Origin: Anaerolineae bacterium
Lineage (GTDB): Bacteria; Chloroflexota; Anaerolineae; Aggregatilineales; J027
Direction: 5' to 3'
DNA: 64,000 nucleotides
Assembly (NCBI GenBank): GCA_034437655.1
Contig: DAOTTU010000046.1
Coordinates: 55,115 to 119,114, forward strand
Both the position numbers and the translations under genes were made by a program. The notes under the pieces are model-generated. The model was not told where the DNA came from and searched no databases. It saw nothing but the letters and a program-made list of their open reading frames with translations. How positions within the stretch are numbered: position 1 is the first letter of the stretch; each line of letters starts with the position of its first letter. Shown here in pieces: positions 36,588 through 40,295 of the stretch.

Positions 36588-36905
36588 ATGACAGTTGACG
36601 ACATTCTTGAGCAGGTGAAAGCCCTTTCGCCAGAAGAACGGGAAGAATTGGTGCGGCGGTTAGAGGAATTGCCCATAGAACACGAAGCGTTGTACGATGC
36701 GACTGGTTCTGAGAAACCCGAGCATTGGGGCAAATCATTGGCAGAAATTATGGATGAAATTGGACCTATCGAATTGAAATATCCGGAAATAGAAGACCCC
36801 GTTGAATGGGTCAAACGGTTGCGTGCTGATGAACGCAAAAGACGGCTCGGTGATCTAGATAATTGGGCCGAAAGTGACAATAGTGATCTGGAAGAGACAG
36901 AATGA
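36588..36905 (+). CDS. Putative antitoxin (acidic, upstream of and coupled to a PIN toxin)
   Basis: 105-aa acidic protein with a GGAGG SD, a TGcTATACT element at 36545-36553 and an ATGA overlap with the PIN gene. Confidence 0.7.
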   Translation: MTVDDILEQVKALSPEEREELVRRLEELPIEHEALYDATGSEKPEHWGKSLAEIMDEIGPIELKYPEIEDPVEWVKRLRADERKRRLGDLDNWAESDNSDLEETE

Positions 36906-37285
36906 CACCAGGTATTGTGGATACAACGGTCATCTTGCACTATTTTCGTAATTACCAGCCGGCTCGTAACTGGGTAGATGCAAATTCACAAGCCCTTTCA
37001 GTAACCACAATCACCTGGTTGGAAGTGATGATGGGGGCTAGCAATAAGGCGAATCAAGCTGAATCGCGCCGAATTTTGAGCAAGTTTCAGCTCATCTACC
37101 TCACAGCCTCGGATCAACAATGGGCAATGCAACGCCTTGACGAATTTCAATTTAGCCATCACATTGGCATGAACGATTGTCTTATCGCTGCGGTTGCCCA
37201 TCGTCGCCAGTTGTCCCTCTACACCCATAATCTTAAAGACATGCAGCCGATGATCAGTGAATTGGCTGTCAAACCTTACCCCTAA
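36902..37285 (+). CDS. vapC: PIN-domain (VapC-like) toxin
   Basis: IVDTTVIL, TITWLEV, NDCLIAA.A, LYTHN.KD: the PIN acidic residues are present. Confidence 0.88.
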   Translation: MTPGIVDTTVILHYFRNYQPARNWVDANSQALSVTTITWLEVMMGASNKANQAESRRILSKFQLIYLTASDQQWAMQRLDEFQFSHHIGMNDCLIAAVAHRRQLSLYTHNLKDMQPMISELAVKPYP

Positions 37286-38940
37286 GCATTGATGTGCCGC
37301 TTTGCCTTCCCTGCAACATAATCTGTGTATCCACCGGGATAGTAACTGAGTTCACCATCTTCTAATTCGACAATCTGATCTACGACGTTATCCAGAAAAT
37401 AGCGGTCATGTGAAATGATCAGCACTGCGCCTTCAAAGTGTTCAAGCTGTTCTTCCAACACTTCAACAGACTGAATGTCGAGGTTATTGGTCGGCTCGTC
37501 CAGCAGCAATAGATTCGGCTTTTGTAGCATGATAGTCGCTAGTTGCAAACGACTTCGTTCACCACCACTCATGCTATGGATGGGCTGACGAAGTTGCTCA
37601 TATGCAAATGTGAAGCTAATCAGAAATGCGACGGCCTGATCTTCACTCATTGGTTTCAAGTCACGGATGAGCGCCAGTGGCGAACGGTCTAACCAGTCAG
37701 CAAGTGTCTGGTGTTCCTGCGCGTAGTAGCCAATATTGGTGCTGGGACCAATGTCAATGAAGCCATCCAGCGGTTGTAAGTCACCTGTAATCAATTTAAA
37801 CAGCACCGATTTGCCCGCCCCATTCGGCCCCACCAGCCCAATGCGCTCACGATGACGGACAATAAAATCCAGGTCGAGGAACAAAACATCATCGTCGAAC
37901 CCCATTGACACCTGCTTAAACTCGATGGCTTTTTTGCTGCCCCGGCTGCCGTTGAGTTTGAGGTCCATCAGCTTGCGGTCAGTGACTTTTTCAATAATCT
38001 CGCCGCGTTCTTCCATACGGTCAAGCATTTTGCGACGGCTGCGGGCTTGCTTGATATGGCGTTCGTTCACTACCAGACTGGCCCACAGTTCGAAACGGGC
38101 AATGGCTGCCTCAATTTTCGCAATTTCCTTTTGCTGGGCAACGTAAAGCTGTTGTTGGCGGAGCCGGCGCAACTCACGTTCGGTCTTGTAATACGAATAG
38201 TTCCCGGCATAGTGCGTGATTTGTCCATCTTCAAGCTCAGCAATCTCCGTAACCACATCATCCAGCAGATAGCGGTCATGTGAAACGATTACGACTGCGC
38301 CGTTATAGCTGTTCAGAAAGTGTTCTAAACGAGCCTTTGCTGCCACATCGAGATGATTATCGGGTTCGTCGAGCAATAGAATGCTGGGCTGTTCAGCGAC
38401 AAGGCGCGTCAACGCTACCAACTTCTTCTGCCCCCCGCTGAGCGAGTCGGCGGGTAGACTAAAGTCCGCTTCTGTAAAGCCAAGATGCGCCAGTGTCCCC
38501 AGAACTGTACTCCGATGACGATCACCGCCAAGCGCGTTATAGTGTTCAAGGGTGCGCTGCTGACGATTCAAGACTTTAGTAAGTCGTTCTTCGTCGTTAT
38601 AGACGGCTGGGTCTGCGAGGAGTGTATCTATTTCGTCCAATTCTGCATTGACGTGGGCGAGGCGTGGTGGCGTTTGCATGGCAGCTTCTAACAAAGTTTG
38701 GCTCGGAGAAAGTATGACGTCTTGGGGCAAATAGCCTACCGTGACATCGCGTGCCAGAGTGATGGTGCCAGCATCTGGCTCAATGAGGCCGTGGATAGTC
38801 TTCAATAAGGTTGATTTCCCGGTGCCATTCGCCCCAATAAGGCCAATACGTGCGCCATTCTGTACAGCAAAGCTCAGGTCGTTGAAGATGACGCGGGTGG
38901 CGTAAGAGACTTTTAGATGATCAATGCGTAGCAGGTGCAT
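37282..38940 (-). CDS. ABC-F family ATPase (ribosome-associated; possibly ribosome-protection type)
   Basis: Two ABC domains (GANGTGKST/LSGGQ/LDEPDNHLD; GPNGAGKSV/MSGGE/LDEPTNNLD), inter-domain helical linker, no TM segments. ATG 38940 with a GGAGG SD. Confidence 0.93.
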   Translation of the reverse strand: MHLLRIDHLKVSYATRVIFNDLSFAVQNGARIGLIGANGTGKSTLLKTIHGLIEPDAGTITLARDVTVGYLPQDVILSPSQTLLEAAMQTPPRLAHVNAELDEIDTLLADPAVYNDEERLTKVLNRQQRTLEHYNALGGDRHRSTVLGTLAHLGFTEADFSLPADSLSGGQKKLVALTRLVAEQPSILLLDEPDNHLDVAAKARLEHFLNSYNGAVVIVSHDRYLLDDVVTEIAELEDGQITHYAGNYSYYKTERELRRLRQQQLYVAQQKEIAKIEAAIARFELWASLVVNERHIKQARSRRKMLDRMEERGEIIEKVTDRKLMDLKLNGSRGSKKAIEFKQVSMGFDDDVLFLDLDFIVRHRERIGLVGPNGAGKSVLFKLITGDLQPLDGFIDIGPSTNIGYYAQEHQTLADWLDRSPLALIRDLKPMSEDQAVAFLISFTFAYEQLRQPIHSMSGGERSRLQLATIMLQKPNLLLLDEPTNNLDIQSVEVLEEQLEHFEGAVLIISHDRYFLDNVVDQIVELEDGELSYYPGGYTDYVAGKAKRHINA

Positions 38941-38975
38941 AGTTACCTCCATAGAACAGGTGTGATGGATACAGG

Positions 38976-39012
38976 AAAAACAAAAACGGCTCCGGGGTGC
39001 GCCCAGAGCCGT
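38976..39012 (-). terminator. Intrinsic terminator inside the ABC-F 5' leader (attenuator)
   Basis: Minus strand ACGGCTCTGGG-(CGCA)-CCCCGGAGCCGT followed by TTTTGTTTTT, about 35 nt upstream of the start codon. Confidence 0.8.
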
Positions 39013-39043
39013 GATACAATCAAAATTAGCAAAATGTGTTACA

Positions 39044-39133
39044 TTATGACGAGGCGCAGTTCTCCAATGTAGGCTGCGCATTGCCACTCTGGCAGCTAAA
39101 TGAGAGGGTGACTGTGTCCGTCATATAAATCAT
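39044..39133 (-). CDS. Putative leader peptide (uORF) MIYMTDTVTLSFSCQSGNAQPTLENCASS
   Basis: ATG lies 6 nt after an extended -10 TGcTACAAT (hexamer 39145-39140), so it would be leaderless; stop TAA falls before the leader terminator. Confidence 0.35.
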   Translation of the reverse strand: MIYMTDTVTLSFSCQSGNAQPTLENCASS

Positions 39134-39196
39134 GCTATCATTGTAGCAGTAATTCGCTCTATGGCATAGTCATGGGCAACTGTTTTGGAGCAAAGC

Positions 39197-39556
39197 ATGG
39201 CAACCTTTGAATACCCCATTGCGTTTTATTACACTCGCGACCTTGCGACTACAGCAGATTTCTACGAAACTAAACTCGGCTTAACACTACACCGTGACCA
39301 GGGTGACTGCCGCATTTATAGAATCAACCCCGGTGCCTATATTGGTTTCTGCGAACGTGAGACAGTCGAACCAACGGGTAATATCATCTGCTTGATAACT
39401 GACAATGTTGATGCCTGGTATGAAAAGCTGACCCTGCTGGGCGTCGCGTTTGAAAAACAACCGGCCATCAACCCCAGGTACAACATTTATCATTGCTTCT
39501 TGCGCGACCCCAACGGCTACCTGCTTGAGATTCAAACATTTCTGGACGATGCCTGA
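39197..39556 (+). CDS. VOC/glyoxalase family protein
   Basis: FYYTRDL....DFY..KLGL, DNVDAWY..L, FLRDPNGYLLEI. ATG 39197 with a GGAG SD. Confidence 0.85.
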   Translation: MATFEYPIAFYYTRDLATTADFYETKLGLTLHRDQGDCRIYRINPGAYIGFCERETVEPTGNIICLITDNVDAWYEKLTLLGVAFEKQPAINPRYNIYHCFLRDPNGYLLEIQTFLDDA

Positions 39557-40295
39557 CTTTTCGCGCTTTGATGCCGATGACCCGCTCAACTGGGATGCTG
39601 ACGCTGCCAGTGAGGAGGTTGTTGACTGGCCAGAACTTGAAGCCGCACTCGGCCCACAAGCACCACTTCCCCAATATAACTGGTGGCAGGCCTGGCACCT
39701 GGTCCTGAGCAGACCTTTTCCCCAAACATTCGACACACTGCTACAAGATCCCAGCGCGGGGTTAGGCCGTGCTAATTCGTGGTTGGCGCTGGCGGGTGCA
39801 ATCAGTAGTGTAGCACCAATCTTTCTTGTCGCAGTCCTGCGGAACACAGATACCTCGGGCCTTTTTGCAGCGGGGATTAGCGCGGCATGTATCGCCCCTT
39901 TCGGTGTTATCGGTTACATGGTTGTGGTGCTGCTTGGCATGGCGGCTGTACATATCAGTGCTAGAGCGCTGGGTGGGGATGAAACTTTTGACAAAGCAGC
40001 CTATGCGCTGTCATTGTCAATTGCGCCACTGACAGTCGTGGTCAGTATATTGAGTGTAGTGCTAGGGGCGATTATGTCGGCCACCGTTGCACTGGCCGTG
40101 TTCCTCTCAGCAGTAGCGGTTATAGCAGCGAGTGTGTATCAAATCGTACTGGCGGCGATGGCTGTTCAGAGGGTGTACCGCATTGGGTGGGGCGAAAGCA
40201 CGATAGCCGCGTTAGCACCATTGCTATTGTTGTATGCGTGCGGGTGTTCGTGCTTGTCGCTTGTATTGGCCTCGGGCAATACGTCTATTCTCTAG
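39549..40295 (+). CDS. Yip1-like multi-pass membrane protein
   Basis: W..VL..P..TF motif, then about five hydrophobic helices with ARALGG..TF. Start moved to ATG 39549, overlapping the VOC stop. Confidence 0.65.
   Translation: MPDFSRFDADDPLNWDADAASEEVVDWPELEAALGPQAPLPQYNWWQAWHLVLSRPFPQTFDTLLQDPSAGLGRANSWLALAGAISSVAPIFLVAVLRNTDTSGLFAAGISAACIAPFGVIGYMVVVLLGMAAVHISARALGGDETFDKAAYALSLSIAPLTVVVSILSVVLGAIMSATVALAVFLSAVAVIAASVYQIVLAAMAVQRVYRIGWGESTIAALAPLLLLYACGCSCLSLVLASGNTSIL

Follow-up and report, generated by a model that had tools for sequence, protein, structure and literature searches.

A predicted leaderless uORF within a conserved candidate attenuator ahead of an ABC-F gene in the Anaerolineae

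How is an ABC-F gene expressed when a strong intrinsic terminator stands directly before its Shine-Dalgarno (SD) sequence, and to which signal would such an arrangement answer? The question is raised by a gene on the minus strand of a 64,000-nucleotide stretch of DNA from an Anaerolineae bacterium, the whole of which is hereafter called the window. Antibiotic-resistance ABC-F genes are usually controlled by attenuation that depends on an upstream open reading frame (uORF) (PMC9226507; bioRxiv 10.1101/2022.12.05.519065; PMC12421871; bioRxiv 10.1101/2021.11.29.470318), and a sequence-only reading of the window had proposed the same here, naming a promoter, a leaderless ATG, a uORF, a terminator and an SD sequence. 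All of these elements lie on the minus strand where that reading had placed them (Table 1).

Table 1. Positions in the window of the ABC-F gene, its leader elements and the predicted switch segments
Feature	Positions	Strand	Basis
-35-like hexamer ATGCCA	39162..39167	-	promoter scan
Extended -10, TGcTACAAT	39140..39148	-	promoter scan
uORF, predicted leaderless, 29 codons + TAA, encodes MIYMTDTVTLSFSCQSGNAQPTLENCASS	39044..39133	-	start context in 55 leaders, coding signature
uORF codons 1-17, amino-acid-conserved part, family consensus MIYFTGFSTLSFALMAS	39083..39133	-	coding signature
CCAGAGU, antiterminator strand of the sequence-only reading; pairs with GCUCUGG (39009-39003)	39086..39092	-	duplex, -13.1 kcal/mol
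uORF codons 15-20, predicted inducing P-site stall window	39074..39091	-	ribosome-mask folding
Segment 1, GCGCAG, 5' strand of the predicted anti-antiterminator hairpin with segment 2	39074..39079	-	folding, -10.6 kcal/mol
Segment 2, C-UGCGCC-U, switch strand, pairs with segment 1 or 3	39052..39059	-	alignment
Mini-hairpin AAUGU-AAC-ACAUU with conserved UGUAAC motif, overlaps the uORF stop codon	39033..39045	-	folding
Segment 3, GGGCGCA, upper part of the terminator's 5' arm plus loop; forms the antiterminator with segment 2	38998..39004	-	pairing, covariation
Intrinsic terminator hairpin, 11 bp (8 G-C), predicted -20.4 kcal/mol	38986..39012	-	folding, RNAalifold
U-run TTTTGTTTTT	38976..38985	-	sequence; T-run invariant in alignment of 39 leaders
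SD of ABC-F, GGAGG	38946..38950	-	sequence
ABC-F ATPase gene, 552 aa, two ABC domains, Arm subdomain	37282..38940	-	domain and model searches

The Anaerolineae are a lineage known mostly from metagenome-assembled genomes. With an nhmmer profile, a leader of about 150 nt was found 5' of the ABC-F orthologue in 53 of the 80 Anaerolineae genomes or loci, each positive locus giving one match upstream of ABC-F, and one match was found in the window. Most counts given below refer to these 53 orthologous loci, to 55 leaders for start context and motifs, or to an alignment of 39 leaders. Promoter, leaderless ATG, uORF and terminator keep identical spacing in the 53 loci; the uORF ATG lies at a near-constant distance from segment 2 and from the terminator, while the gap between terminator and ABC-F start varies. 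As the same elements recur in relatives at the same spacing, the leader architecture, as read from the sequences, is beyond chance and is kept across the class, and the proposed order of a promoter leading directly into a leaderless uORF, followed by an intrinsic terminator and ABC-F, is borne out class-wide by these relatives. Leader and ABC-F gene are inherited vertically across the class, in one copy per locus. An Rfam scan of positions 38000-40000 with E-values up to 10 gave no match on the leader strand, the uup motif included, and no DNA match was found in E. coli genomes. On the opposite strand, the Rfam scan returned just two hits, both near 39895 and attributable to chance. The divergent VOC/glyoxalase gene was rejected as a part of the system, because it is common only to the window and its nearest relative, L001.

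In the window, the spacer between the -35-like hexamer and the -10 measures 16 nt, and in most relatives a TTGACA-like hexamer precedes the -10 by 17-18 nt. The uORF ATG (39133) follows the -10 by 6 nt, and the end of the -10 hexamer lies 6-7 nt upstream of this ATG in 50 of the 55 leaders, 34 of which also carry the TG extension. An SD-like sequence between -16 and -4 of the uORF ATG was seen in none of the 55 leaders. Together, the promoter spacing and the absence of an SD point to a leaderless uORF start.

The terminator is the consensus structure returned by RNAalifold, compensatory changes being seen in 10 of the 11 pairs; when run on the whole alignment, RNAalifold recovered the terminator only and not the alternative helices. 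Hairpin, U-run and covariation thus substantiate the strong terminator that had been proposed ahead of the ABC-F SD. The terminator ends no more than 50 nt from the ABC-F start in about 27 loci (11-50 nt in many loci), which leaves no space for a separate promoter, so that transcription of ABC-F must there traverse the terminator. In the window, the interval separating the terminator from the ABC-F start codon (ATG at 38940) holds nothing promoter-like according to the promoter scan.

The uORF carries a clear coding signature, its BLOSUM62 score per site amounting to +0.90 in frame versus -0.44 and -0.43 in the other two frames. Within the family, Tyr3 is encoded by both TAC and TAT, and Ser11 and Ser17 are each encoded by TCN as well as AGY codons. 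The alignments show that the uORF is under amino-acid-level coding constraint over its first 17 codons, and hence it is putatively translated. The window peptide differs from the consensus at residues 13-17 (SCQSG versus ALMAS), and no known drug-arrest motif is evident in the uORF peptide. The length of the uORF ranges from 22 to 30 codons across the family. In the 22-codon variants, a 1-nt deletion shifts the frame and the RNA motifs are retained, so that conservation of the C-terminal third lies in the RNA and not in the peptide. The stop codon falls within -9 to +13 nt of the UGCGCC strand in 53 of 55 leaders, and GUAA[U/C] motifs occur in the 43 nt past it in 42 of 55.

The UGCGCC core of segment 2 is nearly invariant, with four of six bases fully invariant in the alignment of 39 leaders, and the segment starts at leader nt 76 in 39 of 55 leaders. 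When this strand is set against the terminator top (UGCGCC:GGCGCA, an 8-bp core), 89.5% of cells are paired, compared with 24-60% in slid registers. The flanking pair of this helix (GC 20, AU 10, GU 1, UA 1) covaries between G-C and A-U (Fisher p=8e-5), and the observed number of double changes in the antiterminator was reached by none of 500 shuffles. Moreover, GGCGC is present in 29 of 58 leader terminators versus 2 of 35 other terminators from the same loci, and the cognate duplexes of segments 2 and 3 average -15.0 kcal/mol, compared with -9.7 kcal/mol when segment 2 is shuffled. The pairing register was picked by motif search, and the covariation is confined to one base pair because the core is invariant. 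These comparisons show a conserved and covarying antiterminator, UGCGCC:GGCGCA, whose formation would exclude the terminator and which would be within reach of a ribosome on the uORF. A longer, 14-pair antiterminator was discarded, as its outer flanks are unsupported and only the 8-bp core holds.

Segment 2 has a second potential partner in segment 1. Among the 20 distinct leaders with the segment 1 motif, 80% of cells in this helix are paired, and its flanking pair reads CG 7, UA 4, UG 2 and GC 1. Its mean energy of -13.9 kcal/mol against -15.0 kcal/mol for the antiterminator makes the two states near-equal in energy. The anti-antiterminator is not uniform, with the GCGCA form of segment 1 found in about 22 of 55 leaders and the others pairing differently. 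In naked leaders, the minimum free energy (MFE) structure pairs segment 2 with an upstream partner in 36 of 53 cases, and in full leaders the terminator forms in 52 of 53. On account of these two results, the idea that a further element at codons 16-17 (NCG-UCC) pairs with segment 1 and lets polymerase read through untranslated RNA was dropped after folding.

The effect of a ribosome on these alternatives was modelled by partition-function folding under a ribosome mask, with the specific probability of the segment 2:3 helix as readout; four footprint definitions gave the same result. In the window, the antiterminator probability rises from 0.0 in the naked leader to 0.9-1.0 once the P site occupies codons 15-20, and is back at 0.0 between codon 21/22 and the stop. 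The corresponding family means are 0.27 (naked), 0.52-0.73 (codons 15-21) and 0.00 (codon 23 through the stop). Read-through is accordingly predicted by the model only for a P site at codons 15-20, and termination for a leader that is untranslated or holds a ribosome at the stop. A first masking measure, which scored pairing of the terminator 5' arm with anything upstream, did not discriminate, because this arm always finds some partner, and was replaced.

We regard it as reasonably probable that transcription of the gene is under ribosome-dependent attenuation of the classical four-segment kind, with a leaderless uORF as its basis. The first transcribed base would be the A of the uORF ATG or its neighbour, and a ribosome would translate the 5' end of the nascent RNA. 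In an untranslated leader, segment 1 would pair with segment 2, and in a translated one a ribosome at the stop codon, 12 nt past the start of segment 2, would cover segment 2; by either route the terminator hairpin (segments 3 and 4) would form and RNA polymerase would halt before ABC-F. With the P site arrested at about codons 15-20, segment 1 would be covered and segment 2 left free to pair with GGGCGCA atop the terminator 5' arm, whereby the terminator would be blocked and ABC-F transcribed. According to this model, a ribosome stall on the uORF is probably required for ABC-F to be switched on. This arrest probably hinges on the sequence of the nascent peptide, since the peptide made by that point is the conserved N-terminal stretch of 15-20 residues. 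Of this scheme, the architecture, the promoter features that point to a leaderless start, the coding constraint on the uORF, the terminator and the segment 2:3 helix are established by comparing sequences, whereas the role of the ribosome's position comes from the folding models.

The nature of the trigger was approached through the protein encoded downstream. The ABC-F protein contains PF00005 twice and the ABC-F linker PF12848; an EttA-like Arm is present, and the linker exceeds that of EttA by about 11 aa, the ARE1-5 linkers being about 30 aa longer on average (PMC6723617). With 527 bits it passes the cut-off (380) of NCBIfam NF000355, 'ribosomal protection-like ABC-F', against which E. coli EttA (residues 18-534, rebuilt from alignment) scores 373 bits. 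The models of named resistance families (Msr, Vga, Lsa, Sal, OptrA, CplR, producer type) gave 172-330 bits versus cut-offs of 680-1450, and the housekeeping equivalog cut-offs were missed as well (EttA 384 versus 599, Uup 342 versus 900, YbiT 323 versus 762, YheS 315 versus 917). The protein is equidistant from housekeeping and resistance ABC-Fs, and a PDB sequence search placed it in no subfamily. Given the EttA-like Arm, the short linker extension, this equidistance and the vertical inheritance, a housekeeping role fits equally well.

Other leaders in the class bear on the same issue. Two genomes with the ABC-F leader carry a further copy of the segment 2-spacer-terminator module in front of a Mef-like DHA3 efflux pump, and five more Mef-like loci each have their own leaderless uORF attenuator, with TATAAT-N7-ATG (TAAAAT in one). 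As related attenuators precede Mef-like pumps in the same class, they hint at an antibiotic response. A pattern search in genomes gave 57 hits, of which about 16, from non-Chloroflexi phyla and without a profile match, were set aside as chance. From the gene content and by analogy, we infer that the trigger may be an antibiotic that targets the ribosome, or else a comparable stress on translation, which ABC-F would relieve.

Several other readings of the locus have to be weighed. The sequence-only reading had sought the switch elsewhere, with CCAGAGU pairing to the terminator 5' arm (GCUCUGG) as the antiterminator and a local hairpin, UGCC-AGAGU-GGCA, as the anti-antiterminator. The complementarity is real and strong in the window, this duplex being the strongest among 53 cognate pairs and part of the predicted MFE structure of the naked window leader truncated before the terminator 3' arm. 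However, it is absent from all relatives, L001 included: only 26% of their cells are paired, which is the shuffled-control level, and a register-free test of the two regions detected no co-evolution (p=0.73). The local hairpin can fold, with 51% of cells paired, but it is weakly supported and just 4 bp long. Moreover, the duplex would be free to form with the ribosome at the stop codon or absent, which would give constitutive read-through instead of regulation. It is thus improbable that the switch works in this form even in this genome, although the window leader could be leaky if CCAGAGU:GCUCUGG sequesters the terminator arm while a ribosome sits at the stop codon. We see hardly any chance that the uORF stands alone as a gene for a small protein, ending at its own terminator, and that ABC-F depends on constitutive leakage through that terminator or on an unrecognised promoter. 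The amino-acid conservation over 17 residues would agree with such a gene, but the C-terminal third is conserved as RNA, with its motifs kept in the frame-shifted 22-codon variants, the invariant UGCGCC is complementary to the terminator top with covariation, and the genes for the peptide and for ABC-F are linked in every case, often just 11-30 nt apart.

A weightier rival retains the attenuator and replaces the signal: the leader peptide would be intrinsically hard to translate, ABC-F or translation capacity would resolve the arrest, and the leader would serve as a homeostatic feedback sensor for a housekeeping translation factor. This would suit a gene and leader that are inherited vertically class-wide in one copy per locus, as well as the EttA-like domain layout and the lack of a match to any specific resistance family, and feedback of an ABC-F on its own leader is documented for MsrD (bioRxiv 10.1101/2021.11.29.470318) and ARE5 (PMC12421871). 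Nevertheless, the documented cases act with antibiotic present, related attenuators precede Mef-like efflux pumps, which are incapable of relieving ribosome arrest, and the NF000355 score exceeds that of EttA by 150 bits. We consider homeostatic feedback unlikely overall, albeit deserving of more weight than the other two alternatives, and retain the drug- or stress-responsive attenuator as the preferred reading.

In trp-type attenuators, 1:2 and 3:4 pairing leads to termination and 2:3 pairing to read-through, a ribosome that has reached the stop codon hides segment 2, and stalling on segment 1 induces. The four-segment logic of our model is identical, whereas the leader described here has no run of codons for a single amino acid and its target is a translation-associated ATPase, not a biosynthetic operon. 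The same logic has also been described for Mycobacterium tuberculosis ilvB1 (PMC13236596). A leaderless uORF at the 5' end of a transcript likewise controls downstream genes in the mycobacterial cysteine-responsive short ORFs (bioRxiv 10.1101/834739), but these are rich in cysteine codons and sense cysteine supply, and that system works by translation attenuation, not by intrinsic termination (PMC13236596).

Among ABC-F genes, the leaders of vmlR (Bacillus subtilis), cplR, vmlR2 and lsaA similarly place a uORF and then an intrinsic terminator upstream of the coding sequence (PMC9226507; bioRxiv 10.1101/2022.12.05.519065), with anti-antiterminator, antiterminator and terminator alternating and uORF stalling giving read-through, as modelled here. 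Their uORFs, however, have 3-4 codons (MIN, MRI, MK[L/Q], MAGN), are SD-driven and sense blockers of initiation or early elongation, in contrast to a leaderless uORF of 22-30 codons with 17 conserved residues and a predicted stall at codons 15-20; in addition, there is no sequence similarity and the host phylum is another. The mef(A)/msr(D) genes, one for a Mef-type MFS pump and the other for an ABC-F, are likewise under attenuators, which act through the leader peptides MefAL and MsrDL (bioRxiv 10.1101/2021.11.29.470318), and arrest depends on the nascent peptide sequence, as we propose here. MsrDL differs in having 6 codons (MYLIFM), an SD and an arrest at its own stop codon, and mef(A)/msr(D) is one mobile operon, whereas the Anaerolineae pump and ABC-F genes lie at separate chromosomal loci with related but distinct leaders. 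The actinobacterial ARE5 genes (tiaA, are5sc, lmrC) are also chromosomal, vertically inherited ABC-F genes with uORF-terminator leaders (PMC12421871; PMC8546547), but their uORFs have 3-9 codons and ribosome-binding sites, and ribosomes stall at the start codon with lincosamide, streptogramin A or pleuromutilin. Besides, the uup RNA motif is another conserved element of 5' UTRs that precede genes for ABC-F-type ATPases (PMC5737381; Rfam), yet it is a simple structured RNA and not described as a uORF attenuator. The type of control is therefore already known, while its leaderless, long-peptide version is without earlier description.

The described ABC-F attenuators that we found come from Firmicutes and Actinobacteria and use very short, SD-driven uORFs, whereas the present leader, with its predicted leaderless start, its long peptide selected at the amino-acid level and its very clean four-segment pairing scheme, is kept throughout a Chloroflexi class. 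ABC-F attenuators have been used to learn which drugs a resistance factor answers and how peptide and drug arrest ribosomes; the leader described here offers a candidate new arrest peptide and a test case for the coupling of leaderless (70S-type) initiation to transcription attenuation. Its combination of TAnnnT-N6-7-ATG, UGCGCC and terminator is a signature by which drug-responsive genes may be found in hard-to-culture lineages. For annotation, the ABC-F clade would be one to flag as regulated, and possibly as an intrinsic resistance factor, instead of as a generic 'ABC transporter ATP-binding protein'. More tentatively, and with doubts of our own, we speculate that the 17-residue peptide MIYFTGFSTLSFALMAS may represent a new family of programmed ribosome arrest acting from leaderless mRNA, which would sense a natural ribosome-targeting compound or a state of the exit tunnel or peptidyl-transferase centre, and which, together with the Mef-like leaders, may constitute an ancient, class-wide intrinsic drug-response regulon in the Anaerolineae.

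On the minus strand, the intergenic sequence upstream of the ABC-F gene reads as the sequence-only reading had stated, with a promoter, an ATG-opened 29-codon uORF, a hairpin and a Shine-Dalgarno (SD) sequence in succession. The gene on the other side of this leader is divergent, so the hairpin cannot be an upstream gene's terminator, and no Rfam family matches the leader. The start of this VOC/glyoxalase-family gene, a neighbour shared only with the nearest relative, L001, is separated from the uORF ATG by only 64 nt, and the two promoters must therefore overlap back to back. At its 3' end, the ABC-F gene meets a convergent gene for a VapC-like PIN-domain protein and an overlapping preceding acidic ORF that has no Pfam match, likely forming a toxin-antitoxin pair. 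In addition, the Rfam family rydB has a low-scoring match (20.6 bits, gathering score 50, E=0.16) that falls within or close to a coding region and is almost certainly due to chance.

Features of the leader and its surroundings (window coordinates unless a locus is named)
Feature	Position	Strand	Details
-35-like element	39167-39162	minus	ATGCCA
Extended -10	39148-39140	minus	TGcTACAAT
uORF	39133-39044	minus	29 codons, encodes MIYMTDTVTLSFSCQSGNAQPTLENCASS; ATG 6 nt after the -10
Segment 1	39079-39074	minus	upstream GCGCA copy
Segment 2	39058-39053	minus	UGCGCC, three codons 5' of the stop
UGUAAC mini-hairpin	39033-39045	minus	overlaps the uORF stop codon
Terminator hairpin	39012-38986	minus	11 bp, -20.4 kcal/mol, then TTTTGTTTTT
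Segment 3	39004-38998	minus	GGCGCA, terminator 5'-arm top and loop
U-run and next 5 nt	38976-38985	minus	GTTTTTCC in place of GAUUC
ABC-F gene	38940-37282	minus	552 aa; GGAGG upstream of the ATG
VOC/glyoxalase-family gene	39197-39556	plus	119 aa; glyoxalase/bleomycin-resistance/VOC
Acidic ORF and PIN-domain gene	36588-37285	plus	105 and 127 aa
rydB match	39894-39986	plus	
Mef-like pump locus	L130:4571-4660	minus	related attenuator
Mef-like pump locus	L118:3118-3226	plus	related attenuator

Terminators of the same form (ACGGC, a variable stem, GCGCA, then GCCGTTTTTGATTC) stand upstream of the ABC-F orthologue in most of 80 loci. A profile built from 39 leaders found the element once per locus and always 5' of ABC-F in 53 loci, and gave a single match in the 64 kb of the window. 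The uORF ATG lies 112-131 nt from the terminator start in 43 of 45 leaders, and the near-invariant UGCGCC begins at nt 76 in 39 of 55; between the terminator and the start of ABC-F, in contrast, there are from 11 to >200 nt, and at the loci where this gap is only 11-50 nt ABC-F can be transcribed only through the terminator. As the relatives compared share ancestry, fewer independent events underlie these figures than the counts suggest. Besides, of about 40 leaders scored, 27 have GAUUC immediately 3' of the U-run regardless of the distance to ABC-F. One or two GUAA[U/C] motifs are present in the spacer in 42 of 55 leaders; these and the UGUAAC mini-hairpin may act as a pausing hairpin or as a binding site.

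A TAnnnT hexamer ends 6 or 7 nt 5' of the uORF ATG in 50 of 55 leaders, with a TG extension in 34 of these 50; most leaders also have a TTGACA-like hexamer another 17-18 nt upstream, and an SD-like sequence precedes the ATG in none of the 55. This spacing and the missing SD strongly indicate a leaderless uORF; in Chloroflexi few genes are leaderless, about 5% according to an early survey (PMC3160421). Between diverged leaders, codons 2-17 score a mean BLOSUM62 of +0.90 per site in frame against -0.44 and -0.43 in the other frames; the Tyr3 codon is TAC or TAT, and both TCN and AGY codons are used at Ser11 and at Ser17. Judged from these alignments, the uORF is selected as a coding sequence, with the consensus M-I-Y-F-T-G-F-S-T-L-S-F-A-L-M-A-S. 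Nine leaders have lost 1 nt, which puts the uORF out of frame so that it terminates at codon 22, but their nucleotide motifs are kept; past codon 17 it is the RNA rather than the peptide that is conserved. Divergent leaders from Promineifilaceae and Ardenticatenaceae (L057, L058, L060 and L065) retain the terminator and still begin their peptide with M-[FI]-[YF]-x-x-G-F; segment 2 is preserved as ACGCGCC, and the mid-peptide is arginine-rich instead, e.g. FDRRLIRPLF.

The RNAalifold consensus structure is the terminator, and compensatory changes are seen at 10 of its 11 pairs. Segment 2, the most conserved stretch of the leader, is complementary to segment 3. Of 58 leader terminators, 29 contain the GGCGC motif of segment 3, compared with only 2 of 35 other terminators of the same loci. 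On an alignment anchored on both motifs, the 8-bp 2:3 helix (the antiterminator) has 89.5% of cells able to pair versus 24-60% in slid registers, and its observed number of double changes was reached in none of 500 shuffles; the covariation is confined to one pair, flanking the invariant core (G-C in 20 leaders, A-U in 10, G-U and U-A in one each). Alternatively, segment 2 can pair with segment 1 as anti-antiterminator, a hairpin of -10.6 kcal/mol in the window. Among 20 distinct motif-bearing leaders, 80% of its cells are paired and the flanking pair varies in step; other leaders sequester segment 2 through a different pairing. Energetically the two states differ little, with family means of -15.0 kcal/mol (2:3) and -13.9 kcal/mol (1:2). 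Of 53 naked leaders, 36 have segment 2 bound to an upstream partner and 52 form the terminator. The sequence-only reading had proposed a different antiterminator, CCAGAGU:GCUCUGG, which is indeed real and strong in the window: of 53 cognate duplexes it is the most stable (-13.1 kcal/mol), and the MFE structure of the leader truncated before the terminator 3' arm contains it. However, it is absent from the relatives, L001 included, with 26% of cells paired (the shuffle level) and p=0.73 in a register-free permutation test. The pairing is not the conserved switch; it reflects either chance or fine-tuning in this single lineage.

The effect of ribosome position was modelled by masking a 28-nt footprint and computing the 2:3 probability before the terminator 3' arm is transcribed, an equilibrium approximation to a kinetic process. 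In the window this probability was 0.0 for naked RNA, 0.0-0.14 with the P site at codons 1-13, 0.90-0.96 at about codons 15-20 and 0.0 from codon 21-23 to the stop; the corresponding means of 39 leaders of 27-30 codons were 0.27, 0.26-0.50, 0.52-0.73 (codons 15-21) and 0.00 (codons 23 onwards). The window result was stable across four footprint definitions, and 22-codon leaders behaved in the same way. In 53 of 55 leaders the distance of the uORF stop codon from segment 2 is -9 to +13 nt, which means that segment 2 would always be covered by a terminating ribosome. The predicted inducing position thus coincides with a conserved 15-20-residue peptide just made, which points to an arrest that would depend on the peptide sequence.

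The signal is the weakest link of this explanation. We place an antibiotic or translation stress ahead of self-regulation by a housekeeping ABC-F factor, but not by much. The protein, with closest relatives (60-68% identity) in metagenome-assembled Anaerolineae (Chloroflexota) genomes, which assigns the window to that class, has two ABC domains, the ABC-F linker, about 11 residues longer than in Escherichia coli EttA, and an Arm subdomain, and is about equidistant from EttA, YheS, YbiT, Uup and VmlR, all with solved structures. In NCBIfam it falls below the cut-offs of all housekeeping and named resistance families. The housekeeping reading draws on this lack of a named resistance family, on vertical inheritance of the gene across the class, on the EttA-like layout and on a uORF peptide without a recognisable drug-arrest motif. 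In favour of antibiotic or stress, resistance ABC-F genes are usually under uORF-terminator leaders (PMC9226507; bioRxiv 10.1101/2022.12.05.519065; PMC12421871; bioRxiv 10.1101/2021.11.29.470318), and the protein fits the generic 'ribosomal protection-like ABC-F' model (527 bits, cut-off 380) better than EttA does (373 bits, residues 18-534). Moreover, a genome-wide pattern search found the module of segment 2, spacer and terminator twice more, in genomes also bearing the ABC-F leader, both times directly 5' of a DHA3-family MFS pump whose best named relative is the macrolide exporter Mef(A), with a score under the family cut-off; these copies, and the separate leaderless leaders of other Mef-like loci in the class, likewise favour such a signal. 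Related attenuators at Mef-like pumps occur also at L137-L147. The ABC-F module is common to three Mef-like loci, and five others carry a leaderless uORF, MQYILMPQVINMSK..SFY.RACL.VS., behind TATAAT-N7-ATG (TAAAAT in one), each with a CGCGCC motif and a terminator of its own.

The evidence for this attenuator is computational throughout. Its logic matches that of trp-type attenuators, here on an ABC-F gene; other such cases are vmlR, msrD, vga(A), lmo0919 and lmrC. In known ABC-F leaders the uORF has 3-9 codons behind an SD and arrest occurs at its start or stop codon, whereas the Anaerolineae leader is probably leaderless and has a long uORF with a conserved peptide and a predicted arrest deep within it, in hosts of another phylum. 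The element was not found described in the literature on ABC-F leaders, Chloroflexi ABC-F, the uup motif or leaderless uORF attenuation. While uORF attenuation of ABC-F genes is known, the leaderless, long-conserved-peptide form predicted here is new.
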